Source of the DNA: Christensenellaceae bacterium
GTDB lineage: Bacteria; Bacillota; Clostridia; Christensenellales; UBA1242
Direction of reading: 5' to 3'
DNA: 64,000 bases
NCBI GenBank assembly: GCA_031262595.1
Contig: JAISHI010000006.1
Coordinates: 438-64,437, forward strand
Under the pieces are notes generated by a model. The model did no database searches. It saw only the letters and a list, made by a program, of their open reading frames with translations, and was not told where the DNA came from. Positions 4,182 through 31,978 of the stretch are shown here, one piece after another. The translations under genes and the position numbers were made by a program. Positions within the stretch are counted from its first letter, which is position 1; each line of letters begins with the position of its first letter.

Positions 4182-5453
4182 ATGAAAATATTAAAACTTA
4201 CTGCGAGCGAAATTCTCGACAGCCGCGGCAACCCAACAATCGAAACCTACGCGACGGTTTCCAACGAGCGACAAGCCGTCGTCGGCTGGTGCGCCGTTCC
4301 TTCGGGCGCGTCGACGGGCGAAAAAGAGGCCGTAGAACTGCGCGACGGCGATAAGGCGCGCTATAACGGAAAGGGCGTTTTAAAAGCCGTTCAAAACGTT
4401 AACGAAACTATTCTAAAAGCCGTTTTGGGGCGCGATTTTGCGACGCAAGCCGACCTCGACAACTTTTTAATTAAACTCGACGGCACGCCGAATAAAGGAA
4501 AACTCGGCGCAAACGCAATTCTTTCCGTTTCGCTTTCCTTCGCGCGCGCTGCCTCGACCCTTTCGGGGCAAGAATTTTGGCAATATATCGCAAGTCAGGG
4601 CGGACTTCTCGAACCCGCGCTCCCAACGCCTGCGTTTAACATAATAAACGGCGGAGTTCACGCCGACAGCGGGATTGACTTCCAAGAGTTTATGATTGTT
4701 CCGCTTATGAAAACTTCTTTTGCCGAAAAACTCCGCGCAGGCAGCGAAATAACCGCGAAACTTAAAAGCATCTTAAAAATTAAAAACCTCGCGACAAGCG
4801 TTGGCGACGAGGGCGGCTTTGCGCCGAAGATGAGCAGCAAGCGCCCAATTAAACAAGCCCTCGACTTACTCATCGAAGCCATTTCAAAGGCTGGGTATAA
4901 GGCCGGCGAGGACGTTTCGATTGCGATTGACCTCGCAGCATCCGTTTTTTACGATAAAGCCCAAAAGAAATACATAGTTAAAAACGAAGAAAAAACCTTT
5001 ACGAGCCAAGAATTCGTCGACTACCTCATCGACCTTACGAAAAATTATCCGATAATCTCGCTCGAGGACCCGTTCGACGAAAACGACATGACTGGGTTCG
5101 CGACGCTAACGAAAAAAATCGGCGGAAAAGTCCAAATTGTTGGCGACGATTTGTTTTGCACGAACAAGGAACTGCTCCAAAACGGCATAGATTGCGGCGC
5201 TTGCAACAGCGTCCTCATAAAAATGAACCAAATCGGAACTCTAACCGAAACCCTCGAAACGATTTCGCTCGCGCGTTCCGCCGGCTATTCGATTTTCGTT
5301 TCGCATAGGAGCGGCGAAACAACCGACACCGCGATCGCAGACCTCGCCTTCGCAACCCACGCCGAGTTCATAAAAAGCGGCGCGCCTGTCCGAGGCGAGC
5401 GGGTTTGCAAATACAACCGCCTCATGCAAATCGAGCGCGGCGAGCGGAATTGA
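4182..5453 (+). CDS. eno: Enolase (phosphopyruvate hydratase)
   Basis: 423 aa with the N-terminus SEILDSRGNPTIE, the SHRSGETTD motif and typical enolase length. Confidence 0.9.
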   Translation: MKILKLTASEILDSRGNPTIETYATVSNERQAVVGWCAVPSGASTGEKEAVELRDGDKARYNGKGVLKAVQNVNETILKAVLGRDFATQADLDNFLIKLDGTPNKGKLGANAILSVSLSFARAASTLSGQEFWQYIASQGGLLEPALPTPAFNIINGGVHADSGIDFQEFMIVPLMKTSFAEKLRAGSEITAKLKSILKIKNLATSVGDEGGFAPKMSSKRPIKQALDLLIEAISKAGYKAGEDVSIAIDLAASVFYDKAQKKYIVKNEEKTFTSQEFVDYLIDLTKNYPIISLEDPFDENDMTGFATLTKKIGGKVQIVGDDLFCTNKELLQNGIDCGACNSVLIKMNQIGTLTETLETISLARSAGYSIFVSHRSGETTDTAIADLAFATHAEFIKSGAPVRGERVCKYNRLMQIERGERN

Positions 5454-5556
5454 ACCAATAATTTAAACGCATAAAACACTGTTATCGTAAATTTTGTTTT
5501 GCAAAATATTAAAAATATAGTATACAAAGATTAGTTAATGTGAGGTGTACAAACAA

Positions 5557-5916
5557 ATGTCAAATATGTTGCTAACAATAAACAGGGATGATTTAATACA
5601 TCTGTATATTGCGGGATTAATTGTATTTGTGTTTTTGGTTTATCAAGTTTTAAGAGCACTAATTGACGGACACCGCTTCGATTGGACTTATATGGCGATA
5701 GTATGTCTATCCATAGCTGCGTCTCTACTATTTGAAGTCGCTAAATTAGTGTATATCGGATATATATCCTGTTGTTTGGTAACCTTAATAAAGGAAATTT
5801 ACAAACAAATTACTCCTGAAGAAAATAAGAAACAATTCAGTTGGGCGGATATTGTTGGATTAGGTATTTCGGCATTGGGTGTGACAGCAGAAATTGTTTT
5901 TGGCATACTTGGTTGA
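5557..5916 (+). CDS. Small hypothetical membrane protein
   Basis: About 120 aa with several hydrophobic helices. A GAGGTG SD lies 9 nt upstream of ATG 5557. The gene is AT-richer by eye than its neighbours. No family recognised. Confidence 0.4.
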   Translation: MSNMLLTINRDDLIHLYIAGLIVFVFLVYQVLRALIDGHRFDWTYMAIVCLSIAASLLFEVAKLVYIGYISCCLVTLIKEIYKQITPEENKKQFSWADIVGLGISALGVTAEIVFGILG

Positions 5917-5932
5917 ACATAAAAACAAAATC

Positions 5933-5966
5933 GGGCGAATAGGTAATCTATCCGCCCTTTTATTTT
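5933..5966. terminator. Bidirectional hairpin terminator between convergent genes
   Basis: GGGCGAATA..TATCCGCCC imperfect stem with T-runs on both strands. It ends the actin-like operon. Confidence 0.55.
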
Positions 5967-6835
5967 TAAAATAATCTAGTTTCCTTCTTATATTCTTCCC
6001 ATTCCGCCGCGCCGTGGCGTTTTGCGGATTGGCGTTCTGCCCAAGGCGTGCTGACAGCGAGAAACATAATCGTATTCGCGAGAGCGCCGAACGCAGTCCA
6101 CCACAGCTCGGACGAAACCGCAAAAACCGCGCCCCAAAGCCCCCACCAAAACAATATCTCGCCTAAATAGTTCGGGTGGCGTGAGGACTTCCAAAGCCCA
6201 ACGGCACAAATCCCGCTGTTTTTGCGGTTACCATTCTCGTCGACGGCATCGTAGAATTTATGTTTTTGCGCATCGCTTATAAGTTCTAAAAGAGTTCCTA
6301 AAATCATAACCGCTACGCCGATTAACGCGAACCAGCTAAACGCGGTCGACCCGAGCCCATAAACGAACGGGAACAAGCAACCATAAACGATTAGCGTCGG
6401 GAAAATTTGTATCCCGAAGAGGTTCGCGAGTGGGTAAAGTTTGCCCGATTTCGATTTTATCTCGTCATAGCGCCAATCTTGTTTCGTTAAATCCTTAAAG
6501 GTCGTTATCCAATTTATCGTTAACCGCACGCCCCAAAACTCCACGCAAACTAAAATTAAAATGTTCGTCGCGGAAAAATTCCCCGCTGAAATCATTAAAA
6601 GCGGAACGGCAATCATCGGCAAAACGCTCCAATACGGGTCGTAAACCGTTGCGTTATTAACAATTAAACTAAAAAGATAAACGACAACGGTTGCGGCGAT
6701 ATCCGCGATTAAAAAATTCAGCCAAATCGCAAACGGCGCAAACGCAAAAACGGCTACACCAACACCCACAGCGACTAAATACGTTATTAAAATATACGCA
6801 AGCCCTAAGTTCCTACTCGTTTTTAGTTTTAACAC
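5966..6835 (-). CDS. DUF1295 / steroid-5-alpha-reductase / ICMT-like polytopic membrane enzyme
   Basis: 289 aa, polytopic, with the C-terminal motif SSRHPNYLGEILFWWGLW. The GTG start abuts the stop codon of the upstream gene. Confidence 0.6.
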   Translation of the reverse strand: MLKLKTSRNLGLAYILITYLVAVGVGVAVFAFAPFAIWLNFLIADIAATVVVYLFSLIVNNATVYDPYWSVLPMIAVPLLMISAGNFSATNILILVCVEFWGVRLTINWITTFKDLTKQDWRYDEIKSKSGKLYPLANLFGIQIFPTLIVYGCLFPFVYGLGSTAFSWFALIGVAVMILGTLLELISDAQKHKFYDAVDENGNRKNSGICAVGLWKSSRHPNYLGEILFWWGLWGAVFAVSSELWWTAFGALANTIMFLAVSTPWAERQSAKRHGAAEWEEYKKETRLF

Positions 6836-7447
6836 TTAATTACTACCGCCGTTTTTATTTTCGAGGAATTTAAATAAGAAATCACGCCCCGCCGCCGAAC
6901 CTTCGGGTGCGCCTTTTCCGCCGCTAGCCCCCGGCAAAGCACCCGGTAAAGAACCGCCGCCGCTAAACGAGGCTGGCGCGCTAGGTGCTGGGGTTGGAGT
7001 TGAAACAGGAGCTTGCGCCGGTGCTGGAGTTGGGGATGGCGCAGGTCGAGGAGCCGGAGCCCCCGCTGGAGTTTGCGCAGGAGCTTGCATTGGAGTTGGT
7101 GCTGGTCTTGGCGCTGGCGCCGCGTATTGTTGTTGAGGCATCATGGGTTGCGACACCGCCGGTTGAGGCATCATGCCTTCCGCAGGATATCCAACAGATT
7201 GTAGGTTTACGCCGTAAGCCATAAGGCGCTGGTTCCCGAGACTAATAACCATCTGCCCCATCGCCTCAACTTGTTGCGTTATTATCACATTATATTGATC
7301 GTTAATCATGTCGGAATGTAAGGACGCGGTTATATTTTGCAACGACAAAACTACGGAGCGTATACCACTTATAATTGGTACACTCGCCAAAAACGCCGGA
7401 TTATTTTCGGCATTTTCAAGTAAAACTCCGTACTCTTGTAATGTCAT
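6836..7447 (-). CDS. Proline-rich protein immediately downstream of the actin-like ATPase (ParR/Alp7R position)
   Basis: 203 aa. An N-domain of about 95 aa is followed by a Pro/Ala-rich stretch (APAPRPAPTP, APAPRPAPSP), a Gly-rich segment and the C-terminus FLENKNGGSN. An AAGGAG SD lies 4 nt upstream. Confidence 0.6.
   Translation of the reverse strand: MTLQEYGVLLENAENNPAFLASVPIISGIRSVVLSLQNITASLHSDMINDQYNVIITQQVEAMGQMVISLGNQRLMAYGVNLQSVGYPAEGMMPQPAVSQPMMPQQQYAAPAPRPAPTPMQAPAQTPAGAPAPRPAPSPTPAPAQAPVSTPTPAPSAPASFSGGGSLPGALPGASGGKGAPEGSAAGRDFLFKFLENKNGGSN
6892..7162. repeat. Pro/Ala-rich low-complexity coding region
   Basis: Encodes ..APAPRPAPTPMQAPAQTPAGAPAPRPAPSPTPAPAQAP.. in the 203-aa protein. 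Confidence 0.8.
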
Positions 7448-7455
7448 ATTTCTCC

Positions 7456-8508
7456 TTAGAATTTACCAAGCAAATAGAAACCTTTAACGTTCGCCATAAC
7501 AGCGTTGTCTTGAAGAATAACGCGCGGGTCGTTGAATAATTTTTTAAGTTCTTTTTCAAGCAACATACAGCCGCCACCAGTAAGCACGATATGATAGAAT
7601 TTATTAAACTCGAGCCCTAAACTCATAACCGATTCATAAATTTTTTGCGCGAGCTCGCTTTTATAACGTTCAGCATAAGCCGTTAAATCGAATGTTCCGA
7701 ACGGAGTTTTAACGTTTGGCGAGTTTAATAACGCAACGTCGAGTTGATGCGCGTTTAGCGAATAAATCGACATCTCAGGCATTTTATTATTAACTTCTTC
7801 TTGAAGTAGCGCGATAAAATCCGAAACGCCCATGTCGAAACCGAACGTTCCTCTAACGCGGAAACTTTCTAACGTCGCAATATCAGTTGTTCCCCAACCA
7901 ACATCAAGCACCAAAGCGCGTTCCGCGAGGATTTCTTGGTTAAGACTGTCGCTCTTGTCGTCGTAAACGAACGAATATAACGTTCCTAGCGGTTGCGGAA
8001 CTACGATAACGTCAACGATTTCGAAAACAACGTCCTCAACTTTATCCCATTGAACAGATTTAACGGTATGTTTGCCGAGTAAATTTGCCTTAACTTCGTC
8101 GGTTACGGCTTTGTTTTTCGCTAACGTCGAAGGAACGCCAGTTACGACACGCAATCTATGATCTTGCCCCGTTTTAAGTATCGAAGTAATGCCGATAACT
8201 GCCTCGATAAGGAATTGCTGCGAATTATAACGATTGCGTCCGCGGCCGCCCGAACCTGTTGCCTCGATATCGCCAACCTCATAAACGCGGTTGTTATAAA
8301 GGAACATTTGATAGTCCGTTTTAAACGAGAAAACCAACCCAGAGTCGTTAATCTCTTTGATTGTATTGCGATATTCGATGCTCTCGTTATTATCAGTCCA
8401 AGCCTTAATAGTCGAGTTCGCAACGTCAATACCAACAATCTTGTTATATGGTTTCCCTTGATAGATATTGTTGCTCACTGTTTCCTCTTTTTTACCGAAT
8501 AATGCCAT
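7456..8508 (-). CDS. Actin-like ATPase of the ParM/StbA/Alp type
   Basis: 350 aa with the actin-fold motifs in order: phosphate-1 VGIDVANSTIK, phosphate-2 LVLDVGWGTTDIA, adenosine IVLTGGGCMLL. An AAGGAG SD lies 9 nt upstream. Confidence 0.8.
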   Translation of the reverse strand: MALFGKKEETVSNNIYQGKPYNKIVGIDVANSTIKAWTDNNESIEYRNTIKEINDSGLVFSFKTDYQMFLYNNRVYEVGDIEATGSGGRGRNRYNSQQFLIEAVIGITSILKTGQDHRLRVVTGVPSTLAKNKAVTDEVKANLLGKHTVKSVQWDKVEDVVFEIVDVIVVPQPLGTLYSFVYDDKSDSLNQEILAERALVLDVGWGTTDIATLESFRVRGTFGFDMGVSDFIALLQEEVNNKMPEMSIYSLNAHQLDVALLNSPNVKTPFGTFDLTAYAERYKSELAQKIYESVMSLGLEFNKFYHIVLTGGGCMLLEKELKKLFNDPRVILQDNAVMANVKGFYLLGKF

Positions 8509-8528
8509 TTTTGTTTTCTCCTTTTTAT

Positions 8529-9035
8529 TTATTTCGGCTCGCCTGAATGATTTGCGGCCGCTTTTTTCGATTCGATTTTATTTTTAACATAACCGAAACT
8601 TCTTTCTTTCATTTTCGGCGAGTTTATGTCGCCTATTTTTATGGAACATAGTCCATTTTTGTTTTTAAAGATTGAGAATAAGCCTGTTTTTGCGAACTCT
8701 ATTGCCCTGAAAACAAGAACATCAATGGGTCTCTCGTCTTTATAACAAACGACAGCAACATATTGCTCCGCGCTCGCCGTATCAATCAAATTAGCCGGAA
8801 ACTCTACGCGTTTATCGTTAATCTCCATGCCAAGAGGTAAAAAATCCCCAAGCGAACCGACACCTTCAACAGCCGATTTGGGCGCAATGAAGTTAAGATT
8901 TGCAAGCGCCGCTAGGTTTGTTTGGCTACAAAGAAAACTAAAATCTTGTTTCGCTTGCTTATTGATTGGCGAGTCCAAAAAGGTTTTCGGGCGCTCCCTA
9001 TCTACTAAACTACTAAGGTTTGAAAAATCTTCCAT
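8529..9035 (-). CDS. Hypothetical soluble protein (actin-like operon)
   Basis: 168 aa with no TM segment and no recognised domain. The ATG directly follows the upstream stop, and an AAGGAGG SD lies inside the upstream gene. Confidence 0.55.
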   Translation of the reverse strand: MEDFSNLSSLVDRERPKTFLDSPINKQAKQDFSFLCSQTNLAALANLNFIAPKSAVEGVGSLGDFLPLGMEINDKRVEFPANLIDTASAEQYVAVVCYKDERPIDVLVFRAIEFAKTGLFSIFKNKNGLCSIKIGDINSPKMKERSFGYVKNKIESKKAAANHSGEPK

Positions 9036-9806
9036 TTATTCGCCTCCTTCGACGTTTTCATCTTCGAATTGTTTCTTGCCCTTCGAAGTTATTCCAGCCG
9101 AACCGTATGTATCGATAGAGTTGAATCTTTTCATGTCGATGGCTTTTTGGGCGTTTGCTTTTTTTGTCTTTTCGATTTTTACCGTTTTCTTTCCTGCTTC
9201 CGCCGCAGTTGTTGCGCCAAACCCAGTGAGCGCGTTCATATCCTCGAAAGCCTTCGTAGTCGATTCTTCGATATTAACGGTTTTCTTTTCTTTAAGCGCC
9301 GCGTTGCTCGCCATATTATCGCCCGAAAATTGCGTCATAACCGAAACGCCTAACGCGCCTTGTTCTTTTTCAAAACTTGGCGGCGCAATAATCGAATCTA
9401 GGTTTTGTTGAACGAACATCCCCGCCGACATTGTATTTCGCAATTCAAAATCCGACATATTAGTTTTTGCTTTTGCCTCCGCGAACGCCGAAGCGATTTG
9501 GGCGTTTCTTTGGTTAATTTCCTTTTGTTTTCGATTGGCTTCCGCTTGCAAAAGTTCTTCTCGGCTAGGTTCACGGTCGCGCGCACCAAAAACCGAACTA
9601 ACGACATCTTGTTGCGCCTCTTTTTGAGCTTGTTTTTTAGCGTTTAATTCTTTTTTGCGCGCCGACGCCCCAGCTATTTTCTTTTTAAAAACTATAAAAT
9701 AAAGAGCTATCAAAACCGCAACAACCATAACCGCAGCAACAATCCCGATTATCAAACCGTCATTATTTTGAAGGGCTGGAGTCATAATGCAGTTTTGTAT
9801 TTTCAT
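9036..9806 (-). CDS. Bitopic membrane protein with a charged cytoplasmic domain (actin-like operon)
   Basis: I prefer ATG 9806 (AAGGAG SD 4 nt upstream) to TTG 9863, which is the -35 hexamer of an internal promoter. One TM segment (LIIGIVAAVMVVAVLIALYFIVF) is followed by a K/E/Q-rich region. Confidence 0.6.
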   Translation of the reverse strand: MKIQNCIMTPALQNNDGLIIGIVAAVMVVAVLIALYFIVFKKKIAGASARKKELNAKKQAQKEAQQDVVSSVFGARDREPSREELLQAEANRKQKEINQRNAQIASAFAEAKAKTNMSDFELRNTMSAGMFVQQNLDSIIAPPSFEKEQGALGVSVMTQFSGDNMASNAALKEKKTVNIEESTTKAFEDMNALTGFGATTAAEAGKKTVKIEKTKKANAQKAIDMKRFNSIDTYGSAGITSKGKKQFEDENVEGGE

Positions 9807-9833
9807 TTCTCTCCTTTTCTTATAATCACTTCT

Positions 9834-9863
9834 AATATAGAGGTTTTTGCTATTTGTTGTCAA
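9834..9863 (-). promoter_or_regulatory. Internal promoter TTGACA-18-TATATT inside the actin-like operon
   Basis: Lies in the only sizeable gap of the operon (9807-9895). It is followed by a leader of about 25 nt carrying an AAGGAG SD. Confidence 0.6.
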
Positions 9864-9895
9864 ACGAATTTATATGGGTTTAACGGTGGCGCTTT

Positions 9896-11068
9896 TTATT
9901 CTTCGCTTAGCATTTCTTTGAGTCTCGAAAGGCTAAACCCTAAATCTTTTTCAGGCGGCGCATCTTCTTTCGGCGGCGCGCTTTTTTTAGGTGTTTCCTC
10001 TTTTTTTATCGCACCTTCTTTTGGCGAACTAAACTCTAACTCTTTTTTAGGTGTTGCGCCCTCTTTCGGCGTTGCCGCCTCTTTTACCGCCTCTTTTACC
10101 GCCTCTTTTGCCGCCTCTTTTGCCGCCTCTTTTTTTGGTGGAACAAAATCCGGCTCTGGGTCGGGGCCACCAATAGGTTTATACACTACTTCTCGAGTTT
10201 GTATAGTTTTCGCTGGTTCGCGTTTTTCTTGTTTTTCTTTACCCTTCTCTACAATCCCCCTGCCGCGGTTAAGCTTAGCCGCACGCTCTTCAAGAATTTG
10301 GCTCCAAATCCCCTTTTCGGCGTTAATAGGCTCCCTAATAACAGCATATCTATAATCAAAATTTTGAACTAGTTTCTCGCCCGATTTCTTTCGCATATAA
10401 AAACGGCGCAAATCAACTTTAACGGTCGAAACCCGTTCGCCGTCGGTTGTTAGTTGCATAATATAAAGGACTTCTCCGACGAGCGTCGCCGAGTATTGGA
10501 TTAAATCTGTGCTTTTATAATCAAAAAAAGTCGCGAGCAATTTACCTTTATAAGTATAAAACGCCAGAACTTTTTGCTCAACGCCTGTATCCGGGTCTTT
10601 ATCGACATAATCAATTAAAAACGTTTCGTTATTAAAAAGGTCAACCATTAAGTTGAGCTTCGTAAAATTCATAATAATCTCGTCAGCCGAGCCCGCTTTC
10701 TCTCCTAGTTTATGAAAGGAAACTTGCGATTGAACCCCGTCGCGATGGCTTAAAGAAGTTATAAAGAATAATTTATCCCCCATGCGGCGAATATTCGTTT
10801 TTGATTGAACGGGAACAGTCGCCAAATCCCAGACAGCTTTCTTTTCGTCGTCAAAAAAAACAATTTGATGATAAAGGCTTTGAAATTGTTCCGTATAGGA
10901 TATTAAGATTTTCTCGTTTGGATTTTTATACGAATGTATCGCGGATTCAAACTCCATCTTCGTTTCATGCGTCGAGATATACTTATCCCCACGTATATCG
11001 CGCGTCCATTCATCCCTAACGAGGTTTTCGTTTAACTCAATCTCTTTGCCGTCAATCAATATACTCAT
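9896..11068 (-). CDS. Hypothetical soluble protein with a (KEAA/V)x5 repeat (actin-like operon)
   Basis: 390 aa with no TM segment. A beta-rich N-domain is followed by a charged, Pro-rich C-terminal region. Its start overlaps the upstream gene as ATGA. Confidence 0.6.
   Translation of the reverse strand: MSILIDGKEIELNENLVRDEWTRDIRGDKYISTHETKMEFESAIHSYKNPNEKILISYTEQFQSLYHQIVFFDDEKKAVWDLATVPVQSKTNIRRMGDKLFFITSLSHRDGVQSQVSFHKLGEKAGSADEIIMNFTKLNLMVDLFNNETFLIDYVDKDPDTGVEQKVLAFYTYKGKLLATFFDYKSTDLIQYSATLVGEVLYIMQLTTDGERVSTVKVDLRRFYMRKKSGEKLVQNFDYRYAVIREPINAEKGIWSQILEERAAKLNRGRGIVEKGKEKQEKREPAKTIQTREVVYKPIGGPDPEPDFVPPKKEAAKEAAKEAVKEAVKEAATPKEGATPKKELEFSSPKEGAIKKEETPKKSAPPKEDAPPEKDLGFSLSRLKEMLSEE
10075..10134. 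repeat. Tandem 12-bp coding repeat x5
   Basis: CCGCCTCTTTT[A/G] x5 on the plus strand, encoding (KEAA/KEAV)x5 in the 390-aa protein. Confidence 0.9.
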
Positions 11069-11667
11069 AATATCACCCCAACGGATGTTTCCTCGTTTTT
11101 CTCTTTCTCTTTTCCGCCAGCCGCAGGGTTTTCCGCGCTCTCGCGGTCGTATTTATCAGTCGATTCTAACGGTTTAAGATTCCCGTGTTTTTTCTCAACG
11201 CGGAAATCATCGATGTTTTCGATTAAATAGTGAACGATAACAGTCGAATACGGGCTAGTTGCTGAAAGATAGTATTTACCCTTTTCAAAAACAATGCCCC
11301 GCGCGTTAACGTAATATCTTTCACCGTCGCCGTCGAATTGCTCGTCGCCCGTATCATTCTCTAAAAAACGGAAGGTTTCGTATTGGTATACTCGCTTGCC
11401 GTTGTCGCCTAACGTAAAGTATTTAAACGAAACAACGGATTTATTTTTAGCGGCTTTGCGGAACTTTTTAAGTTTAAACTTTGGATTATATTTTAAACTC
11501 GTAGTTAATAAAGCAATAAACAAAGCGAAAGCTAAGATTAGGCACGCGCCCGAAAAAAGCAATGCTTCAAGCGGCATATCCTTCCCTAAAAAACTTATCG
11601 CTAGTATCTTTGCCATTTCCCTACTTATTGCCTCCATCTCTATTGCGAGCTCTTTTCGCTTCTTCAA
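11065..11667 (-). CDS. Bitopic membrane protein (actin-like operon)
   Basis: About 200 aa. One TM segment (LLFSGACLILAFALFIALLTTSL) is followed by KYNPKFKLKKFRK, implying a cytoplasmic C-domain. The start is uncertain: TTG 11667, ATG 11637 or ATG 11616. Confidence 0.5.
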   Translation of the reverse strand: MKKRKELAIEMEAISREMAKILAISFLGKDMPLEALLFSGACLILAFALFIALLTTSLKYNPKFKLKKFRKAAKNKSVVSFKYFTLGDNGKRVYQYETFRFLENDTGDEQFDGDGERYYVNARGIVFEKGKYYLSATSPYSTVIVHYLIENIDDFRVEKKHGNLKPLESTDKYDRESAENPAAGGKEKEKNEETSVGVIL

Positions 11668-13990
11668 TTTGCGCCTTACGCGCAGCCCGTATATCTTCTT
11701 TACTTACTTGTCCAACGCTCCTACCCGATTTAAGGTCTTGCATATAGCCAGAGAGGTCGAATTTCGATTTATCCGTTCTTTCTGAAACGAGTTCTGCTTT
11801 CATTAACTTATTGCGTTTAGCATTCGTCAATAGCATGACTAATAACCCAATAAGCATAAGCGGAACGATTATTAAAGGTATCAATATCGTTAGTTTAAGC
11901 CCCGTTTTAATATCGTTTTCTATGTTAATCAGCGCAATATTGCCGTTCGAAGAAATCCAACTTTGATTTGCCGCCAATAACTCCTCGCTAAGCCTTATAC
12001 TTAAAGTTTTGCCGGATAATGAAGCGTCATCGCCGAAATCCTTATAACTTTTCCCGCCAATTTTCCAATCTCTTATATCGCTGCTTGCGTTAAGGTCGTA
12101 TTCAAGCGTAATAACGTCGCCAACCTTGAATTTTGTCTCGCCGCCCTCGAAATTAACCTTATCGTCCGTTGCAATTTTTATACCAAGCGTTTTAAATACC
12201 GCTGTTATAGACCTATCACTCCCGACACTAAAACTCGCCGTATTTCCGTCAATTTCGCTTGTTGCGATGTTTGTAAAATGGCTGAATTGATATACGCCGT
12301 TAACTTTGCTTTTTGCCGTTATGCGGATATTTGCGTCTTTCCCGAAATAATATTTACCGTTGTCATCTGAAACATCTACCCATTCGTCATCGCCAACATT
12401 CTCGGTAATCTCAATGGTTCCAAACTCGGATTGCCCGACAGTTAACGTAAACTCGCGCCTAAAAGTCGCGCTAATTTCAACTTTATTATTAGAAAAATAT
12501 GTATCAAGGAAATCCTCATCAATCGCAAGCCCGTTATTAGAAATAGTAAAGTCATCAAGTCTATCGCCGCTAGCGTTAGGAACAGCGCGTTTTATCTTAA
12601 ACCCTTCGAAAACATATGCATGCCCGCCTAATATAATTTTAGAACTTTCCAAACTTTCGCCGTCATAAGTAATGCTCTCTAAAACGTCTAAAATATGAAT
12701 CTTTCCGCTTGCGCGGTCGCTATCAAAATTCGCAGCAATAAGAGGATTGATGCCCGTTATAGCGTTTCCGTCGCTGTCAACAGCCTTAATAGAAAGCGTT
12801 AAGTCTTTCGATGTGAAATTAAGCGTTATGCCGCCGTTTGCGTTTATTGGGGTTGTAGTATGTGGAATTGTCAGCGCGCCGTCATACTCGATATAATCGC
12901 CCTCGATAGTTGTTATCGTTACCGTCGAACCCTCGTCAAGAATAATATAATTTTCACCCGAGAATTGCCTATTGCCGCCGTTCGGGCTAAATACGATAGG
13001 GCTTTGAACTACTGTTTGTATGGCGTCGTCGAAAAGCGCACTATCAACATTAGTGTTATTGTCGATAGCCCCATTAACTGTAAAGGAATACGTTCGAACA
13101 TATGCGCCGATAATATTTATTTCGCCGTTTAAAACATGGCTGTCTATAAACTCCTCGTCAACGGTTACTGAATACGCATCCTCGAAGGTTAGCCGTGTGC
13201 CGAGGTTGTCGTAATAGCCCGCCGTGCTATACTCTATAACAGGATACGCGAAACGCTTTGTCGTATCCGCCGCCGACAACGAGTTCATAAGCCGAAGTTC
13301 GTCGCCGAGCATAACCTTTAAAGTATCGCCTGTCGTTCTTGAAATATTCTCTACTTCAAAATATCCGCCTAGCTCGGGGTTTTTCGTATAAGTCGTTCCG
13401 TTAGTATACGCCGTATCAACGTTAACTTCATATTGCAATGGCGCAAAATGCAATTCAAACTTATAATCTATATTAATGGATGGTAATACGAACAAATACG
13501 TTCCGCTGCCTAGACCGCTTTCGGTTAAAGTTATGGTTTCGCTTCCATTGGATGTAAAATTGCCGCTAGTATACACCCCGCGAACAACATTAACCGCAAC
13601 AAGGTCATAGTATCTAATCGGCGCGATTGTTATTAAGAACTCATCTCGGGTTGCGTTGGTATCTTGGAAGAATAAGTTTATGTTATTAAGTCCGAGCGCC
13701 ATAGGTCTGCCGTTGCTGCCCGTAATCCTAAAATCAACGCCGCTCATATTTTTCGGAGCGTCCGTCCAACTCTCGCCAAGGTCATAACGACCGTTGCCGT
13801 TCGTATCTATATAATTCTCACCCGCGTCATAACGTCCGTTAGGGTCAACAACCGCCGTTCCTATTATGGCTGGTCGAGTAGAATCCAACGTCGCCGCAGA
13901 GACTTCTAATTTCGGCGCCTGCGCGAACATAAGCGAAAGCCCAAACGATAGCGCAACAATTCCAAACAATAAATATTTGACTTTTTTCAT
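11621..13990 (-). CDS. Type-I surface protein, 789 aa, with a C-terminal TM segment and a 75-aa cytoplasmic tail
   Basis: Signal peptide MKKVKYLLFGIVALSFGLSLMFAQA, a large ectodomain, a TM segment (LTILIPLIIVPLMLIGLLVMLL) and a long tail. It is paralogous to the 944-aa neighbour. Start and stop overlap as TAATG. Confidence 0.75.
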   Translation of the reverse strand: MKKVKYLLFGIVALSFGLSLMFAQAPKLEVSAATLDSTRPAIIGTAVVDPNGRYDAGENYIDTNGNGRYDLGESWTDAPKNMSGVDFRITGSNGRPMALGLNNINLFFQDTNATRDEFLITIAPIRYYDLVAVNVVRGVYTSGNFTSNGSETITLTESGLGSGTYLFVLPSINIDYKFELHFAPLQYEVNVDTAYTNGTTYTKNPELGGYFEVENISRTTGDTLKVMLGDELRLMNSLSAADTTKRFAYPVIEYSTAGYYDNLGTRLTFEDAYSVTVDEEFIDSHVLNGEINIIGAYVRTYSFTVNGAIDNNTNVDSALFDDAIQTVVQSPIVFSPNGGNRQFSGENYIILDEGSTVTITTIEGDYIEYDGALTIPHTTTPINANGGITLNFTSKDLTLSIKAVDSDGNAITGINPLIAANFDSDRASGKIHILDVLESITYDGESLESSKIILGGHAYVFEGFKIKRAVPNASGDRLDDFTISNNGLAIDEDFLDTYFSNNKVEISATFRREFTLTVGQSEFGTIEITENVGDDEWVDVSDDNGKYYFGKDANIRITAKSKVNGVYQFSHFTNIATSEIDGNTASFSVGSDRSITAVFKTLGIKIATDDKVNFEGGETKFKVGDVITLEYDLNASSDIRDWKIGGKSYKDFGDDASLSGKTLSIRLSEELLAANQSWISSNGNIALINIENDIKTGLKLTILIPLIIVPLMLIGLLVMLLTNAKRNKLMKAELVSERTDKSKFDLSGYMQDLKSGRSVGQVSKEDIRAARKAQIEEAKRARNRDGGNK

Positions 13991-16824
13991 TAGTTCGCCC
14001 CTCCGTTATCCTTATTATTTAGAAGGTCGCTGAGCATACTGCCCATATTAATTCTACCCTCTCCTTGCCTACTCCTTACGAGCGCTTCCTTATAAGCCTT
14101 CTTTTTCGATTTCATGCGTATCATAAGAATAAGGCACGCCAAGAGTAATAACGGAACTATAACCGCCGCCGCGATTAACAAGATAAACATGGTTTTGTCC
14201 GCCGTTGTTTCCGGAATAATATCAAAACTAATTCCTCCTCCCGCGAACAACTCGTCAAGTTTTTCTTTCGTTAAAACAATCGCAACCGAACTCGAATCAT
14301 ATTCTTCACCGTTTATCTTCATGCCCGCGGCGTTATAGTTCTTGTCTGGCTCGAACTTTATCGTTAAAGTGTCGCCAATCTTAACTTTTTCCGCAGAGCC
14401 TAACTCATGCCCATTAACGAGGGTTTTAAGCGTTCCGTTCGTTTCTTCTATGCCTTTTGTTATCACGATGTCGTGTTCTATCGCCCTAAAATTAAGGAAA
14501 ATAGTATTATTTCCTTGCGCAAGCGGTTGCTCCCATTCAAGCGGCTCGCTCGCGTTAGTTCTCGCCTCGCCATTAACCGTAAAATCGACAAACTCATAAT
14601 AATCGTCGGCGATCGCAACGATTTTAAGCGTTGCATTCTCGGAAATGTTCTCGTTTACCGCGTCGCTGATTTGAACGCTTGTCCATTCGTTAGTATTTGC
14701 CCCTTCGGGTATTTGCGCGACGCCGTTTATATAAAGTTCAAACTTATTAACGTCGGTTGCAACATCATTATTAACCTCGATTGCGATTAAGGCTTTTTGT
14801 CTAAATACTTGTATTAAAGTTATCTCGCCGTCTTCGTTAAGATATTTAGTTAATTCTTCAAAAGTTAGATTAATAAGCTTGCCCTCGGGGTCAAGTTCCG
14901 CGCCGTCAAGAATGCTATCAATCCCCGCGACTATTTCAAAACCTTCAGGGGTTTCGCTCGTTAAATCTACAATATTACCGTCAGCCTTTTTAAGTTGATA
15001 GCCAATAAGGTTATACCCTTCAACTGCTATTTTTTCGATAGGCTCAATAGCATCGCCTTCCCTTATATTTATTTCGCTTGCTCCAAATATATCCCCGCTC
15101 TCATCGACGGTTTGGATTAAAACAGTATATTCAACGCGGACAAACCCTATATTAAACTCTTTGTCCGCACCTAAACTAAAAACAAAAACTATGTCGCCGT
15201 TAACCGTAGTAGTCTCCATTCCTTGAGCGATAAGTTCATCTTCAAATTCGCTCGCGAGTTTATTTGTTTCGGACGGATCAACCGTTACTCGAATAGAGGT
15301 CGTCGGTTCTAGATATTTCGGCTTGCTTGGATTCGTGATTACCGTCCAAACGTTATCTGGGTCGGTTGTTTTATGATACTCAACAATAAAATCGCCCATA
15401 AGTTCGTCCGCGGCGCTCGCGTAATCAACCTTTAAACTATTATTTCGCTTATATTTCGCGGAAATTGTTATCTTGTCGCCGCTTAAATAGTTATCAAGAA
15501 ACGCTTGATTAACAATCATCGCCGAGAAACCGTTTTGATCCGCGAATTGGATATCACCATAACCGAAATACCCAACTAAATTATAACGGTTATTATCTCC
15601 GAGTATTTTGTTTCTAATCGTTATTAAGTTGTTGCCATTTTCAATAGAAACCGCGTTCTTTAAAAGTTCAATAGATATTCCCTCGCTAGCTGATGTCGCT
15701 AAGACCTCTCCCGTGCCATCTAAAACTGTCTTAATCTCAACGTTATACGAAATCGCTTTAAAGCTAACAAAGATTGTCGCCGCGTCATCCGTTCCTATTG
15801 AATCCTCATCAAGCGTTATCGCATCCGTCTCATTGCTATATAGGTTTCGATTGTCTGCCGAGTTATAAACTCTTGTCCCATCTATAAAAATTGTATCGAC
15901 TGTATAGTAATCATTAGGCTGAACAATAAGTTTAACTATATCAAACGTGCCATTTCGAACAACTTGCGTCGCCTCCGCGCCCGTTCCGAAAGCCCCGCCA
16001 ATCGAGTTGTTAACGGAAAGATGGACTGAACCGTTAGGCGCGTTCGTCGTAGCCGTAACCGTTATGGAATCCGCCGCTAAAACCGCCCTAAATTTAATTT
16101 CTTTATCCTCGTCGTCTATATATTTCGTAATAAAGTCCGGCGTTAATAACGAAAACATATCTGGATATTCGAGCGATGATATGAAATGCCAATCGTTGTC
16201 TACGCCGAATGCCTCCCAAGAAAGAACGCTGCCTCCCGTAAGACTTCCCGTCGTATATAAACGGTTTGTTTCGCCGCGCTTGACTGTCCCTTTTTCCGAC
16301 GCCGAAGAAACCGCCGCCCCGCCTTCTGTTCCAACTGATGTTAATTCGTATTCAATCGGCGTCCAAATAGCGTAAAGTATTATGTCCGAATATAACCATT
16401 CCCCAGTCCACTCGCCCGGCCCTCGCCCTATTTGAAATTCAGGGTGATTTGCTGGGTATAAAGCTTCCGCGGGATCCGTGCAAGAAGGGTTTGACGACCA
16501 ACCGCCGAAAATATAACCCTTACGGTTTTTAAGTAACTCAACTGCCTGACTGAAAGTACTATATTTAGGGTGCATAACAACTGAACCAACCATGCCTGAA
16601 ACAGCAATATCGCCAAATCCGGTTTCGCGGTTATCGTTTGCGTGAAGCTCTAATCTATACCTCTCAGTTCGTGGGTCAGTAGCGGCCGAAACTGCTGTGT
16701 TTGCTGTTATATTACTTTGAAGTGCCTCACTCGCGAACGCGCTAAGCCCAGCAACGCCGAATAACAACGCAAACGCGAGAATAACGCCGATAAAGAGTTT
16801 CTTCATATGTAATATTGTCCCCAT
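13990..16824 (-). CDS. Type-I surface protein, 944 aa, with a C-terminal TM segment and a 42-aa cytoplasmic tail
   Basis: Signal peptide, a Listeria-Bacteroides-type repeat (GYIFGGWSS...LYAIW), beta-rich modules, a TM segment (MFILLIAAAVIVPLLLLACLILMI) and a tail ending DLLNNKDNGGAN. Confidence 0.75.
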   Translation of the reverse strand: MGTILHMKKLFIGVILAFALLFGVAGLSAFASEALQSNITANTAVSAATDPRTERYRLELHANDNRETGFGDIAVSGMVGSVVMHPKYSTFSQAVELLKNRKGYIFGGWSSNPSCTDPAEALYPANHPEFQIGRGPGEWTGEWLYSDIILYAIWTPIEYELTSVGTEGGAAVSSASEKGTVKRGETNRLYTTGSLTGGSVLSWEAFGVDNDWHFISSLEYPDMFSLLTPDFITKYIDDEDKEIKFRAVLAADSITVTATTNAPNGSVHLSVNNSIGGAFGTGAEATQVVRNGTFDIVKLIVQPNDYYTVDTIFIDGTRVYNSADNRNLYSNETDAITLDEDSIGTDDAATIFVSFKAISYNVEIKTVLDGTGEVLATSASEGISIELLKNAVSIENGNNLITIRNKILGDNNRYNLVGYFGYGDIQFADQNGFSAMIVNQAFLDNYLSGDKITISAKYKRNNSLKVDYASAADELMGDFIVEYHKTTDPDNVWTVITNPSKPKYLEPTTSIRVTVDPSETNKLASEFEDELIAQGMETTTVNGDIVFVFSLGADKEFNIGFVRVEYTVLIQTVDESGDIFGASEINIREGDAIEPIEKIAVEGYNLIGYQLKKADGNIVDLTSETPEGFEIVAGIDSILDGAELDPEGKLINLTFEELTKYLNEDGEITLIQVFRQKALIAIEVNNDVATDVNKFELYINGVAQIPEGANTNEWTSVQISDAVNENISENATLKIVAIADDYYEFVDFTVNGEARTNASEPLEWEQPLAQGNNTIFLNFRAIEHDIVITKGIEETNGTLKTLVNGHELGSAEKVKIGDTLTIKFEPDKNYNAAGMKINGEEYDSSSVAIVLTKEKLDELFAGGGISFDIIPETTADKTMFILLIAAAVIVPLLLLACLILMIRMKSKKKAYKEALVRSRQGEGRINMGSMLSDLLNNKDNGGAN

Positions 16825-16832
16825 ATACCTTG

Positions 16833-16861
16833 ATTTTATGTATAAGGCATCTCAAAGTCAA
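16833..16861 (-). promoter_or_regulatory. Promoter of the surface-protein/actin-like operon, TTGACT-17-TAAAAT, with the -10 box 8 nt from the ATG
   Basis: Hexamers read directly from the sequence. Confidence 0.6.
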
Positions 16862-16917
16862 ATACTCCGCAAACCATTGTCTAAAAATTTTTTAATAGTT
16901 TTTATAATATTTTAAAT

Positions 16918-17004
16918 TGGTGCTCGGGATCGGACTTGAACCGATATGAGGTTGCCCTCGAGGGATTTTAAGTCCCTTGCGTCTGCCGATTTCGCCACCC
17001 GAGC
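16918..17004 (-). tRNA. tRNA-Leu (anticodon UAA)
   Basis: 87-nt cloverleaf. Acceptor stem GCTCGGG/CCCGAGC, anticodon loop CTTAAAA, long variable arm, T-loop GGTTCAAGTCC and an encoded CCA. Confidence 0.9.
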
Positions 17005-17007
17005 AAA

Positions 17008-17035
17008 AACCGTATCGCGATTAAACGATACGGTT
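17008..17035 (-). terminator. Hairpin after the 1080-aa gene, overlapping the tRNA-Leu promoter and leader
   Basis: 10-bp stem AACCGTATCG/CGATACGGTT with an 8-nt loop, followed by TTTTT directly before the tRNA 5' end. Confidence 0.5.
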
Positions 17036-17064
17036 ATTATATTGCTAGTATTTCAGTTTGTCAA
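17036..17064 (-). promoter_or_regulatory. tRNA-Leu promoter TTGACA-17-TATAAT
   Basis: Perfect consensus hexamers immediately after the stop of the 1080-aa gene. Confidence 0.7.
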
Positions 17065-17078
17065 TTTAAAGTTTAGGG

Positions 17079-20000
17079 TTATGCCGTAACTTTATCATAA
17101 ATTCCCAAAACTATATAGCCATACCCGTCGCCACCTAATCCATAACCTGATGGAAGAGCAACTTGAAGGTTGTCGTCGCCCATAAGTTTTGAGAAACCTT
17201 GGGTTTCCGCGGGATTGAACGCGCCGGCGGGAACAAGCCCTTGACGAAGTGTATGAACTATCGGTTTGTTGTCTTCGTCTTTGTCTTCTTTATCTTCCCA
17301 ATTAAGTATGTATTGGGCGTTTGCCATAAAGTCAGAGAGTTTAGCGCCGCCTGGGAGTGGCGTATCTTTGTTGAAAAGTTCCATAATTCCATCCGCTACA
17401 ACCCCCGCCATACTTGCCATCCCGAATGGACTAAGTATTTCTCCAAGCGCTACAACAAGCTCGAGTTCAGTAGCCTCGAACATATCTTCTATTGCGTTCT
17501 CATCAGGTGTTGATGTATCCTTAATTTTAGGTTTACTCGAAGCGCGCATCAATATAGGAGCGTTATATTTTGCTTTAACAGTTCCGTTGCCGCCACCTTC
17601 AGCTATGTTCGCATATATTGTTTTTGTAGGATCAAAAGCCTCAAGCCCATCAGCGGGAGTCGCGCCCTTCGCAGGATTTCCAACGATTGTATTATCAATC
17701 GGACCCGCCAAAGGCATATAGCCGTTAAGAACCATAAAAGGCGAATCGAAAGTTATAGGATTATATATCTCAACATCTTTGCCGATAGTTATTTCAAGGT
17801 CTCGAACGCCAATACCGCCTTCTATCTCTGGATTAAGCATTGCCGAAATAACTGCATTCGAGAGTGCCTCAACTTGTGTAGTATTAGTTATTCCTAGTTG
17901 TCCTGCCTTAGTTTCAATACCAGTTTTAAGCGTTGCAAGAACCATGTCGTCGGCCGCGGTTAGCGCGCTGTTTATCCCATAACTCGTATCGTCAACAACT
18001 ATACCGAAACCAGCGTTGTTAATAATTTTTGTTTCGCCTGTGAGTTTTAAAATTGTTGAAGCATACGCATAGATGCCGGAGTTAAAGTTATTTTCGATTA
18101 TACAATTATTAAGTTCCGCGCCGCCAACTTCGTTATCATTATGCATCCAAACCGCAATCGTCACTTTACTTATATCAACATTATCAAGTACCATATGCGC
18201 TTTATAAGAGAGGACTCCTTGTATCGCTGATGCATTATGAGCGTATCGCTGGTTTATGAGATATTCCCAAGCATTTTGGGCAGCACTTACAATTACATTG
18301 CCCTCCGAGTCCTTTCTCTCGACACCAACATATGGATTGCCTGCCTTGTCTTCTGGCCAAAGCTCGTGGCCTGTGCCCCAATCGCTAGGCATGTTTGCAT
18401 GAAGCTCTTCGATAAGCCTTGGCGAACTGCCCTCGATTGTTAAGTTGTTGATTGTTGTTTGTGCATTTACTGTCTCGCCGTCGCGAAGGTCTTGGATCAT
18501 AAATATGCCTATGTGGTTTGAAGCTATTGCCTCGCTTATGTGGGTATCGAGCAACGCGCCAAAGTTTCCGTTTGCTTCTGTCGACGCAGCAACAGGATAC
18601 TTACTTGCGTCAACAGTAAAGTTATTTCCTTCAACGGTGAGGCCAAAATCGGAATTTGCGGCGGTCGGATCCGCTTTAATTCGCCTTTTAAAAGGTGCGC
18701 CGGATTGGCGATACATCTCATCCGAGTCCCAATTATCAAAGATGTTTTGAACTGTGCCTTCATTAGCCGCAATATACCCCGCGACAGGATTCGAGCCTAA
18801 AATTAGGGCTTGATTAGGGGTGTATTCCTCTATCCAAGTCGAAGCCTCGTCGTCAAGTTCATCCGCGTCCCAAACTTGGTTATAACTTTCAGGCGCTTTA
18901 TCGGCGTCTTCCGCTACTAACGTATCCCATTGAGCTTTCGTCATATTATAGTATTCTGGCGTTATGTTCGCGAGCATGAAGATTTGTTTAACGCTCGTAT
19001 CCGCGAATTTTTTCGAGAGTTCGAAACTATTATAAACGTTAACCGCGTTAGCTCCCCCAGCAATATTAACTTTAATTATAATAGGGCTAACATTAGCGAA
19101 GTTATAAAGTGGCTCAACGGAAATTTCGTACTCCCCGCTGCCAACCGAGAAATCGAGCGCAACAGTTTCTTCCTCAACAATATCTACCGTTTTAATACCA
19201 GTCGCCGTAGTAGAAACTACTTTTTCTTTAAAGAAGTTCACTTTCTTCAAAGTTGCGATGCTAACTTCCGTGCCTGCGTCATTTTTCACGGTTATTTTAT
19301 ATTGGTTATCCGCGTTCGCGATAGTCTCGTCGACGTCGCCTATGATCGATGTTTGCGATAAATCAAGCCTGAAATCGTTTTGGGCGATATTAAGAACGCC
19401 GCTACCCACTTGATCGAAGTTGTCGCCCCAAGTTAACATATTTGTATAAGGAACAACTTCCATTTTAAGGATTATGTCCTCTTCGCCATCTTTAACGAAT
19501 TTAATTTTCGTATCCCCGAGCGCGTTTGCTATGAGTTTATTTTCGTCGATAATAATCGCCTCTTCGTCATCCGAAACGCTCGAAACCGTCGCTCCTTCCG
19601 CAGATACCACCGCATATCCCTCAGGCATTGTTAAGCTAAGCTCAACGCCTTTCGCGATTATAATATGCTTGTCTGTTTCTCCGCTCTCGTCGATTTTTTC
19701 TTCAATAAAGAGTGCGCTATCGCTTGCGAAAATCGAACCCGATTCCGTAAGGGCGCCGTCCTCAAATGAAACGGCTGCAAATTGTTGCGATTCAACTGGA
19801 TTGATTAAGTTTATACGTTTAGAGATTGTTGGTTTATTTTCAACGGCAATCTTAACCTCCGCGCCGTTCGTTTCGGAAAATCCTGCTTCATACGAAATCG
19901 TTACGGTATAAGTGTTTTTACTGTTCGCAACTTTTTGAACTTCGCCGTAGCTGATGAGTTCGCTCGAAGGCGTAATAACTACCTCGTTTTCCGTCGCGTG

Positions 20001-20321
20001 AACAGGCAAAAGCGTGAACGTAATCGTTGTTGATCCGCTCGAAGGCGCTTTCGCCACGTATTGGTTTTTAGGCTCTAAGTTCGACGCATGATAACGCCCG
20101 CCCGCCTGAATTTGTAAATCTAAAACGGGCTTAGTCGGGTCTATAACGTCGGTATCCATCCCATCAATTCCGCCGCTTATACTATCGATAACCATGCTAC
20201 TAACGTTGTATTTGTCTGGCTTTTCGAGGTCGCGGCTTGGGTCGAGGAAAACAACCGCGAGAACGATACTCGACACGACAACAACGCCTGCTATTATAAG
20301 TGCTATAACTTTTTTATTCAT
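17079..20321 (-). CDS. Large N-terminally anchored surface protein with parallel beta-helix-like repeats
   Basis: 1080 aa. N-terminal TM segment (VIALIIAGVVVVSSIVLAVVF) and repeats such as NNCIIENNFNSGIYAYAS and NNAGFGIVVDD. An AAGGAG SD lies 5 nt upstream. Confidence 0.7.
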   Translation of the reverse strand: MNKKVIALIIAGVVVVSSIVLAVVFLDPSRDLEKPDKYNVSSMVIDSISGGIDGMDTDVIDPTKPVLDLQIQAGGRYHASNLEPKNQYVAKAPSSGSTTITFTLLPVHATENEVVITPSSELISYGEVQKVANSKNTYTVTISYEAGFSETNGAEVKIAVENKPTISKRINLINPVESQQFAAVSFEDGALTESGSIFASDSALFIEEKIDESGETDKHIIIAKGVELSLTMPEGYAVVSAEGATVSSVSDDEEAIIIDENKLIANALGDTKIKFVKDGEEDIILKMEVVPYTNMLTWGDNFDQVGSGVLNIAQNDFRLDLSQTSIIGDVDETIANADNQYKITVKNDAGTEVSIATLKKVNFFKEKVVSTTATGIKTVDIVEEETVALDFSVGSGEYEISVEPLYNFANVSPIIIKVNIAGGANAVNVYNSFELSKKFADTSVKQIFMLANITPEYYNMTKAQWDTLVAEDADKAPESYNQVWDADELDDEASTWIEEYTPNQALILGSNPVAGYIAANEGTVQNIFDNWDSDEMYRQSGAPFKRRIKADPTAANSDFGLTVEGNNFTVDASKYPVAASTEANGNFGALLDTHISEAIASNHIGIFMIQDLRDGETVNAQTTINNLTIEGSSPRLIEELHANMPSDWGTGHELWPEDKAGNPYVGVERKDSEGNVIVSAAQNAWEYLINQRYAHNASAIQGVLSYKAHMVLDNVDISKVTIAVWMHNDNEVGGAELNNCIIENNFNSGIYAYASTILKLTGETKIINNAGFGIVVDDTSYGINSALTAADDMVLATLKTGIETKAGQLGITNTTQVEALSNAVISAMLNPEIEGGIGVRDLEITIGKDVEIYNPITFDSPFMVLNGYMPLAGPIDNTIVGNPAKGATPADGLEAFDPTKTIYANIAEGGGNGTVKAKYNAPILMRASSKPKIKDTSTPDENAIEDMFEATELELVVALGEILSPFGMASMAGVVADGIMELFNKDTPLPGGAKLSDFMANAQYILNWEDKEDKDEDNKPIVHTLRQGLVPAGAFNPAETQGFSKLMGDDNLQVALPSGYGLGGDGYGYIVLGIYDKVTA

Positions 20322-20381
20322 TTTTTCTCCTTTATTTTTTAAGTTAAACCGATTTTTTAATTAAACTCCCCGCATACGCTC

Positions 20382-31972: not shown

Positions 31973-31978
31973 CGCGGT

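Follow-up and report, generated by a model that had tools for sequence, protein, structure and literature searches.

A chromosomal ParM-type actin-like cassette and its possible link to tailed surface proteins in uncultured Christensenellales

The stretch of DNA considered here (hereinafter the window) comprises 64,000 nucleotides from a Christensenellaceae bacterium (assembly GCA_031262595.1, contig JAISHI010000006.1, positions 438 to 64,437) and carries on its reverse strand a string of nine genes, here g1 to g9, which codes for two giant tailed surface proteins (g1 and g2), an actin-like protein of the ParM type (ALP; g7) and several proteins of families lacking a Pfam model. We posit, with a probability of roughly 45%, that this locus represents an actin-like filament system of the ParM type which has been domesticated on the chromosome, handles some cargo other than DNA and, in one clade, has been wired to surface proteins. 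The proposal starts from the gene content of the locus, an ALP with intact ATPase motifs, a genetic linkage that persists through rearrangements, a lack of DNA elements for partition, and the conservation of both the cytoplasmic tail of one surface protein (tail B) and a C-terminal peptide of the g8 protein.

To our knowledge, actins of the ParM type are understood almost solely as pushers of plasmid DNA. The ALP family described here offers an alternative cargo: the DNA-binding adaptor and the centromere are gone while a conserved adaptor with its peptide has been kept, and in one clade conserved partnership is limited to membrane and surface proteins whose cytoplasmic tails are conserved. 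Should the coupling to these prove true, it would mark the first case in bacteria of a filament of the actin family being tied across the membrane to proteins of the surface; it would also give functional context to the g4, g5, g6 and g8 families and could explain surface organization in the abundant, uncultured Christensenellales of the gut.

The actin-like ATPase and its core partners

The g7 gene (7456–8508; like the other eight, on the reverse strand) encodes a protein of 350 aa, which a preliminary description, made from the sequence prior to any database search, had assigned to the ParM/Alp-type actin-fold ATPases. This assignment is upheld both by Pfam domains above their cut-offs and by ParM structures as the nearest solved relatives: the ALP_N model (PF17989) recovers g7 with 53.4 bits (cut-off 26.3; E = 4e-14), MreB-like_C with 44.8 bits (cut-off 27.8) and ParM_N with 29.5 bits (cut-off 27.4), and the protein further matches PHROG 691, annotated as ‘partition protein’, with E = 2e-39. 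By the Pfam and NCBIfam searches and the solved relatives, it is neither a sugar kinase nor an Hsp70-type ATPase. The family shows no variation in the phosphate-1 (DVANSTIK), phosphate-2 (DVGWGTTD) or adenosine (LTGGG) motif, with D28, N31, S32, T33 and K35 of the first, D202, G204, G206 and D209 of the second, and T310 and G311–G313 of the third retained in all 24 members compared. Its scores fall far below the NCBIfam equivalog cut-offs for ParM (PRK13917; 79.9 versus 417 bits), PRTRC protein D (76.1 versus 214.8 bits) and FcmB (34.8 versus 300 bits), and hence we regard g7 as belonging to a distinct subfamily of ParM-type ALPs. The best solved relatives are the pCBH ParM (6ixw/6izr), the pSK41 ParM (3js6) and Alp12 (4apw); as all of these form filaments, g7 is likewise predicted to polymerize.

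We recovered about 120 relatives of this ALP with 52–69% identity, on contigs of up to 381 kb, all of which come from uncultured Clostridia or Christensenellales; g7 itself has a counterpart with 100% identity in a metagenome-assembled genome (MAG) of the Christensenellaceae. Related ALP loci sit on contigs of 100–680 kb, some of them beside housekeeping genes. The ALPs of plasmids and phages are at most 31% identical to g7. The nearest ALPs outside the family (30–31% identity) are those of loci L036 and L037 (Haloplasma contractile MAG) and of L040, the Mycoplasmatota plasmid CP074574, where the ALP belongs to a classic ParM–ParR pair beside a gene whose annotation reads ‘type IV secretory system conjugative DNA transfer family protein’. 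The ParM–ParR context of this plasmid relative suggests that the chromosomal ALP family had its origin on a plasmid. A further contig, L029, carries two ALP paralogues (5424–6440 and 7528–8640), with the order g5-g6-ALP-g8 followed by the second ALP at the end of the contig.

Immediately downstream of the ALP, in the position that ParR occupies in plasmid cassettes, lies g8 (6836–7447), a core component of 203 aa. It is built of an acidic helical N-terminal domain of about 90 aa, a Pro/Ala/Gln-rich linker of variable length and a C-terminal peptide of the form GRD[YF]L[LMF]x[LIF]L, which lies no more than 12 residues from the end in 32 out of 32 members (GRDFLFKFL in the window, 6863–6889). 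Outside this peptide the family members are just 16–34% identical. The N-terminal domain is net acidic in 31 of the 32, and a scan of 18 members at E ≤ 0.1 returned neither a ribbon-helix-helix (RHH) domain nor any other Pfam match; a comparison of the g8 profile with the PDB sequences gave noise only. In the nearest plasmid ParM system (that of the Mycoplasmatota plasmid, 31% identity), an RHH-type ParR stands in the position of g8 and ends in the hydrophobic sequence …LDGMINDFIK. The terminal peptide of ParR is the element that docks to ParM. Given its ParR-like gene position and conserved C-terminal peptide, along with an acidic, non-RHH N-terminal domain, g8 looks by analogy like an adaptor which has kept the filament-docking end and changed the cargo end. 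That the locus has no adaptor is hence true of a DNA-binding one, no RHH protein having been found, and wrong for an adaptor as such.

The third element, g4 (9896–11068), is a core component of 390 aa whose family lacks a Pfam model. About 220 of its residues belong to an all-β domain that resembles a β-propeller and that in the window genome only is extended by a disordered tail rich in Lys, Glu and Pro. The AlphaFold2 model (pLDDT 74, pTM 0.69) has about 19 β-strands, and its best Foldseek matches are the kelch, prolyl-oligopeptidase, TolB and clathrin propellers, all of them weak (E ≥ 1e-3, TM-scores of 0.3–0.44); comparison of the g4 profile with the PDB sequences found nothing.

To place these genes in context we compared 35 species-level genome loci, 12 metagenome loci and four further contigs, annotated with iterated hidden Markov models (HMMs) built from the nine window proteins. 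Beside the ALP, g4 was found in 30 and g8 in 31 of the 35 genome loci, with most of the misses falling at contig ends. Judged by this gene content, g4, the ALP and g8 are the universal core of the system. The nine-gene unit of the preliminary description does not survive the comparison, since the invariant core is g4-ALP-g8 while g3 and the DUF1295 gene (g9) are confined to this genome.

Tailed surface proteins and the membrane-linked set

Tailed surface protein A, the 944-aa product of g1 (13990–16824), begins with a signal peptide, which is followed by a large ectodomain; behind a single C-terminal transmembrane (TM) segment, about 38 aa form its cytoplasmic tail (…KKAYKEALVRSRQGEGRINMGSMLSDLLNNK…). 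Tailed surface protein B (789 aa), encoded by the adjacent g2 (11621–13990), is organized likewise, its ectodomain standing between the signal peptide and the C-terminal TM segment and its cytoplasmic tail measuring about 65 aa. The topology first proposed for both is borne out, with Sec-type signal peptides, a single C-terminal TM segment and basic cytoplasmic tails. Significant resemblance between the two is limited to the last, membrane-proximal domain, the TM segment and the tail, tail A being homologous to tail B. The InlB B-repeat model Flg_new scores them at 17.2 bits, below its cut-off of 27; three of five orthologues tested, which are larger than the window proteins, pass at least one of the two models for this repeat, namely Flg_new_2 with 40.2 (L032) and 32.8 bits (L004) against a cut-off of 23.6, and Flg_new with 29.1 bits (L001) against 27.

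Tail B carries the motif KAELV…F…[FY][IM]xDLKxG[KR]xVGQV (core at 11708–11737) and has a mean identity of 48%, whereas the ectodomains of these proteins reach 28%; an alignment of the TM segment plus tail B from six sequences has 11 invariant positions. Conservation of the tail above that of the ectodomain demands a partner inside the cell that is itself conserved, and near the tailed genes the cassette alone supplies conserved proteins of the cytoplasm. A search of a database of 5.8 billion proteins with the tail profile returned one fragment, the query being too short for significance. The tail pattern ΦΦxDLKxGxxVxxV recalls the actin-binding WH2 motif; six B tails compared with the Pfam WH2 model gave no match at E ≤ 10, and Pfam thus lends the likeness no support.

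The clade nearest the window (ALP identity of about 59–69%) has an extended set in which g5 and g6 are added to the core, and in nearly every such locus with enough sequence giant tailed surface proteins adjoin this set, in four arrangements. Their genes lie upstream of g4 in the window and in L004, L032, L042, L053 and L054, downstream of g8 in L001, L002 and L005, and, for L012 and L030, after g6 on an arm that diverges from ALP-g8; in L056 the tailed gene is 3.4 kb upstream of g4, with genes for a glycosyltransferase, a 144-aa open reading frame (ORF) and an alcohol dehydrogenase between them. The reverse test, a DNA-pattern scan of metagenomes for the tail-B motif, yielded 12 loci. Contig ends truncate eight of them; the ALP cassette is present in each of the four whose context is usable, though three of these are the same contigs as L001, L002 and L005 and only L042 is independent. 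On the 381-kb contig of L053, the full cassette is followed (at 13218–21047) by a 2165-aa ORF with Big_2/fn3 matches and a 4284-aa ORF, the latter being a gene call that runs past the end of the locus; as both giants fall outside the g1/g2 family, this locus may be a surface-protein hotspot.

The first of the two added proteins, g5 (9036–9806), is a bitopic protein of 256 aa whose short N-terminus lies outside the cell; past its one TM segment, a long cytoplasmic stretch rich in Lys and Glu is disordered and bears short hydrophobic motifs. The ORF extends to a TTG at 9863 (275 aa); the gene itself begins with the ATG at 9806, behind a AAAGGAGAG ribosome-binding site, in accord with the length of 256 aa initially given. 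Its relatives conserve an LLNNP-type N-terminal motif, predicted to lie outside the cell, and repeat along the cytoplasmic arm a motif of the LFSQLHNEQY type, [LV][FLI][GS]x[LMI][HKN]N[ED][QE][YF], in up to four copies in L012 (7599–8486; other instances lie in L009, 2192–2932, in L006, 1025–1738, and in the window gene). These arm motifs are similar to the amphipathic core found in the tails of the surface proteins, and they may constitute multivalent docking sites. A Flp1_like match in g5 was disregarded, being below cut-off and confined to the TM helix.

The second, g6 (8529–9035), is a soluble α/β protein of 168 aa from a small family, with 55 representative clusters among 1.84 billion proteins. 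Its structural model is of high quality (pLDDT 93) and weakly resembles PD-(D/E)xK nucleases, matching the SPARDA nuclease domain, PvuII and Eco15I-N at E ≥ 0.02 and Gp685 of phage G at E = 5e-4; the candidate acidic and Lys positions are conserved in 61–68% of members and are not invariant. These matches, along with the closeness of the ALP to plasmid ParMs, the ParR position of g8 and the existence of chromosome-encoded ParMR cassettes (PMC12270681), could favor a role in DNA segregation, be it that of the chromosome, of some plasmid not seen here or of an element that has integrated, with g6 or g8 as an unconventional centromere-binding substitute for ParR. However, the window has neither iterons nor intergenic repeats nor mobile-element genes near the locus, g8 has its acidic N-terminal domain without an RHH or other Pfam match, g6 is missing from the clade with the core only and varies at its nuclease-type residues, and members of the family lie on long contigs, in some cases beside housekeeping genes. 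We therefore hold DNA segregation to be very unlikely.

Returning to a filament system with non-DNA cargo, the genetic linkage and the conservation of the tail suggest that the filament is connected to the surface proteins. In the clade of the window, the core would have acquired a membrane-linked set in which g5 and g6 are joined by either one or two of the giant type-I surface proteins with their conserved tails. The C-terminal peptide of g8 would engage ATP-driven ALP filaments at their ends or sides, as that of ParR does with ParM, while g4, g5 and g6 would bridge the filaments to the cytoplasmic tails, so that filament growth or turnover would position, cluster or move the surface proteins in the membrane. 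From the sequences we infer filament formation, each of these protein–protein contacts and the cellular outcome alike. The most specific version of this mechanism, namely a transmembrane link in which the g8 peptide captures the filaments and g4 acts as a hub that, with g6 and g5, reaches the tails and thereby moves or clusters the surface proteins, is tentative, and taken as a whole we regard it as rather unlikely. There is a substantial chance that the locus represents a new type of filament-to-surface coupling.

Several observations weigh against such a coupling. The close relative L055 has g4, g6, the ALP and g8 with no homologue of g1 or g2 within 10 kb, and g5 was not detected there by the HMM annotation. 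About 20 more distant loci (ALP 56–59% identical) carry the core without a large tailed protein within 10 kb. Tail A, at 31% identity as against 27% for its ectodomain, is barely better conserved than the latter. The peptide of g8 could be a membrane-targeting helix rather than one that docks to the ALP, and the weak nuclease likeness of the g6 model leaves some room for a link to nucleic acids. Moreover, a small number of metagenomes from termite guts and the rumen supplied many of the loci, among which there are duplicates. The preliminary expectation that the ALP gene travels with the tailed surface proteins and the small proteins is thus correct for the clade of the window, across at least four gene orders, and fails for the core-only clade and L055. 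The latter loci indicate that the core must also serve a function independent of adjacent surface-protein genes; with the larger clade and L055 both lacking these, the surface proteins are a clade-specific addition.

Such a distribution is what one would expect if g4-ALP-g8 were a general intracellular cytoskeletal module, acting for instance in cell shape, division, sporulation or the positioning of an internal structure, with the surface-protein genes being merely clade-specific, co-regulated neighbors in no physical contact with it. The core-only loci lie amid housekeeping genes: in L010 and L013, annotated with Pfam, the core is placed between glmM, glmS and dcd at one end and a gerA/B/C operon at the opposite end. 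This adjacency makes a sporulation connection of the ALP core possible. In the same clade g4 is very strongly conserved, with a mean column identity of 72%. However, a mere neighborhood does not sit well with a surface-protein linkage that has outlasted at least four gene orders or with a tail that is better conserved than its ectodomain and calls for an intracellular partner. On balance, a general module devoid of physical coupling strikes us as possible and on the unlikely side.

Alternatively, the cassette might aid the export, folding or anchoring of the giant surface proteins, with the ALP as a chaperone-like or assembly ATPase that is not cytomotive. The tight linkage with giant secreted proteins, the membrane association of g5 and, in this genome, of g3, and the precedent of PilM and FtsA, which are actin-fold, membrane-proximal scaffolds that bind peptides of bitopic proteins, would be consistent with this. 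We nonetheless consider it improbable, as the ALP groups with the filament-forming ParMs and not with Hsp70, PilM or FtsA, the core occurs without adjacent giant proteins in many genomes, and the surface proteins have ordinary Sec signal peptides.

Operon layout and chromosomal setting

All nine ORFs are present on one strand at the coordinates first reported, and these coordinates bear out the tight junctions described for them, namely a 1-nt overlap at 13990, an ATGA overlap at 11065–11068 and zero-nt junctions at 9035/9036 and 6835/6836. The promoter scan recovered the TTGACT-17-TAAAAT site proposed ahead of g1 (16833–16861, reverse strand) with a 10/12 match to consensus. An internal site, TTGACA-18-TATATT (9834–9863, reverse strand), outscores it with 11/12 and falls in the gap between g4 and g5, a junction at which a gap of 77–180 nt recurs in related loci. 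Promoter-like matches in the region number 22, as compared to 22.3 expected from shuffled sequence; hence, both promoters are plausible by position only. At the other end, the hairpin scan confirmed the terminator of the gene string, an intrinsic terminator-like hairpin (5933–5957, reverse strand) with a 10-bp stem including six GC pairs and a T-run behind it. The operon is immediately preceded by a tRNA-Leu(TAA) gene (16918–17004, reverse strand) that lies outside the system, was absent from the preliminary description and has its own promoter at 17064–17036 with a 12/12 match. The scan found no terminator-like hairpin between it and the operon, and read-through from the tRNA promoter may therefore add to operon transcription.

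Two members of the string have no counterpart in any related locus and are accordingly viewed as passengers. The first, g3 (11065–11667), is a bitopic membrane protein of about 183–200 aa, with its likely start at ATG 11637 or 11616, and may be a lineage-specific passenger or add-on; that it could be a truncated g4 paralogue was rejected on an hhalign probability of 0.2%. The second, g9 (5966–6835), encodes a DUF1295 membrane protein of 289 aa, with the family assignment being secure (PF06966; 151 bits, E = 4.6e-44, profile positions 2–235 of 235), and is probably co-transcribed with the operon in the window. The topology initially given for the two bitopic proteins, g3 and g5, also stands. 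Searches of Pfam, NCBIfam, PHROG and PADLOC returned no family match for g3, g4, g5, g6 or g8.

The flanks in the window encode UvrA, TIM, enolase, DnaN, an ABC protein, MscS and the SRP RNA, with no relaxase, type IV secretion system or phage genes. The small intergenic spaces hold no iterons or other repeats, the sole repeats being low-complexity coding DNA, and a repeat search of the window found no tRNA-derived direct repeat that could mark an island boundary. Apart from the ALP itself, no phage or defense family was matched in PHROG or PADLOC. The claim of a chromosomal locus is hence sustained by its housekeeping flanks and by a window that shows no RHH-type ParR, iterons or plasmid, phage or defense context. 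An origin of the locus from a plasmid, an integrative and conjugative element or a phage was rejected on the low identity to plasmid and phage ALPs, on the unlikeness of the locus to the best plasmid match, with its classic ParM–ParR context and a T4SS coupling gene for conjugative transfer on the plasmid, and on the missing island repeat. A defense system was rejected as PADLOC gave no meaningful hits, its single marginal match falling within the TM region of g5.

Elsewhere in the window, a gene for a sigma-70-family factor (243 aa) stands beside one for a SpoIIAB-like anti-sigma kinase (HATPase_c_2, 152 aa) at 31241–32437, a pair that resembles spoIIAB-sigF. Three very large ORFs of 1080, 1317 and 1198 aa (17079–20321, 27175–31128 and 38734–42330, respectively) have no Pfam match that passes the cut-off; the one of 1080 aa is hydrophobic over a segment at its N-terminus and matches a β-helix weakly. 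A 609-aa protein (32941–34770) combines B12-binding, radical-SAM and uracil-DNA-glycosylase-superfamily domains.

Comparison with known systems

Full-text literature searches found no described system of such composition, as the preliminary description had supposed, and nothing either on actin-like proteins in Christensenellales or on a bacterial actin coupled to the tails of surface proteins. Among the closest parallels is ParMRC, the type II partition system of plasmids, as known from R1, pSK41, the pCBH ParM and Alp12, with which the window system shares the ALP fold (ALP_N plus a ParM-type C-terminal domain), the order of an ALP gene followed by that of an adaptor, and an adaptor made of a flexible linker and a short conserved hydrophobic end peptide. 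In contrast to ParMRC, however, the ALP of the window is chromosomal, lies among housekeeping genes and is distant in sequence from those of plasmids and phages; the N-terminal domain of its adaptor is acidic and non-RHH, there are no parC-like iterons, and it has additional conserved partners in g4, g5, g6 and the tailed surface proteins. Of the features that define ParMRC membership, the window locus has neither a ParR, nor a parC, nor a plasmid location.

ParMR cassettes have been described on chromosomes, with the cParMs of Desulfitobacterium hafniense and Clostridium botulinum as examples (Ali et al., J Biol Chem 2025, PMC12270681). These occur on Bacillota chromosomes and have been proposed to function beyond plasmid segregation, their role still being an open question (PMC12270681). 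The cassettes consist of a ParM with or without a ParR alone and are defined via the ParR-like partner (PMC12270681). While the window system resembles them in having a ParM-type ALP conserved on Bacillota chromosomes, no β-propeller-like, bitopic or surface-protein partners are reported for the cParMs (PMC12270681). At the sequence level, the C. botulinum cParM (Cb-cParM) gives a marginal match to g7 (E = 2.5e-4).

Other actin-family systems offer precedents for cargo of a different kind. In the MamK–MamJ system, an actin-like filament is connected by an acidic, repetitive or disordered adaptor to the magnetosome, a membrane-bound cargo. As proposed here, the filament is thus tied through an adaptor to membrane-bound cargo and not to DNA, although MamK belongs to another ALP subfamily, the cargo is an intracellular organelle and the adaptors are not homologous. 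The PilM–PilN, FtsA–FtsN and MreB–RodZ pairs are comparable in that an actin-fold ATPase is genetically coupled to single-pass membrane proteins with short, conserved peptides in the cytoplasm. However, their ATPases are of the FtsA, PilM and MreB types whereas g7 is of the ParM type, and g5, unlike the partners in those pairs, has its bulk in the cytoplasm and a conserved N-terminal motif predicted to lie outside the cell.

Finally, although there is no homology to the integrins or to the tails of TRAP/MIC2 in the apicomplexan glideosome, and no motor protein in the window system, the combination of type-I adhesins, short conserved tails and an actin-family filament is shared with them by way of analogy only. 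If the transmembrane link between the ALP filament and the surface proteins were true, it would be a prokaryotic counterpart of integrin–actin or glideosome coupling and could drive surface motility or polar adhesion.

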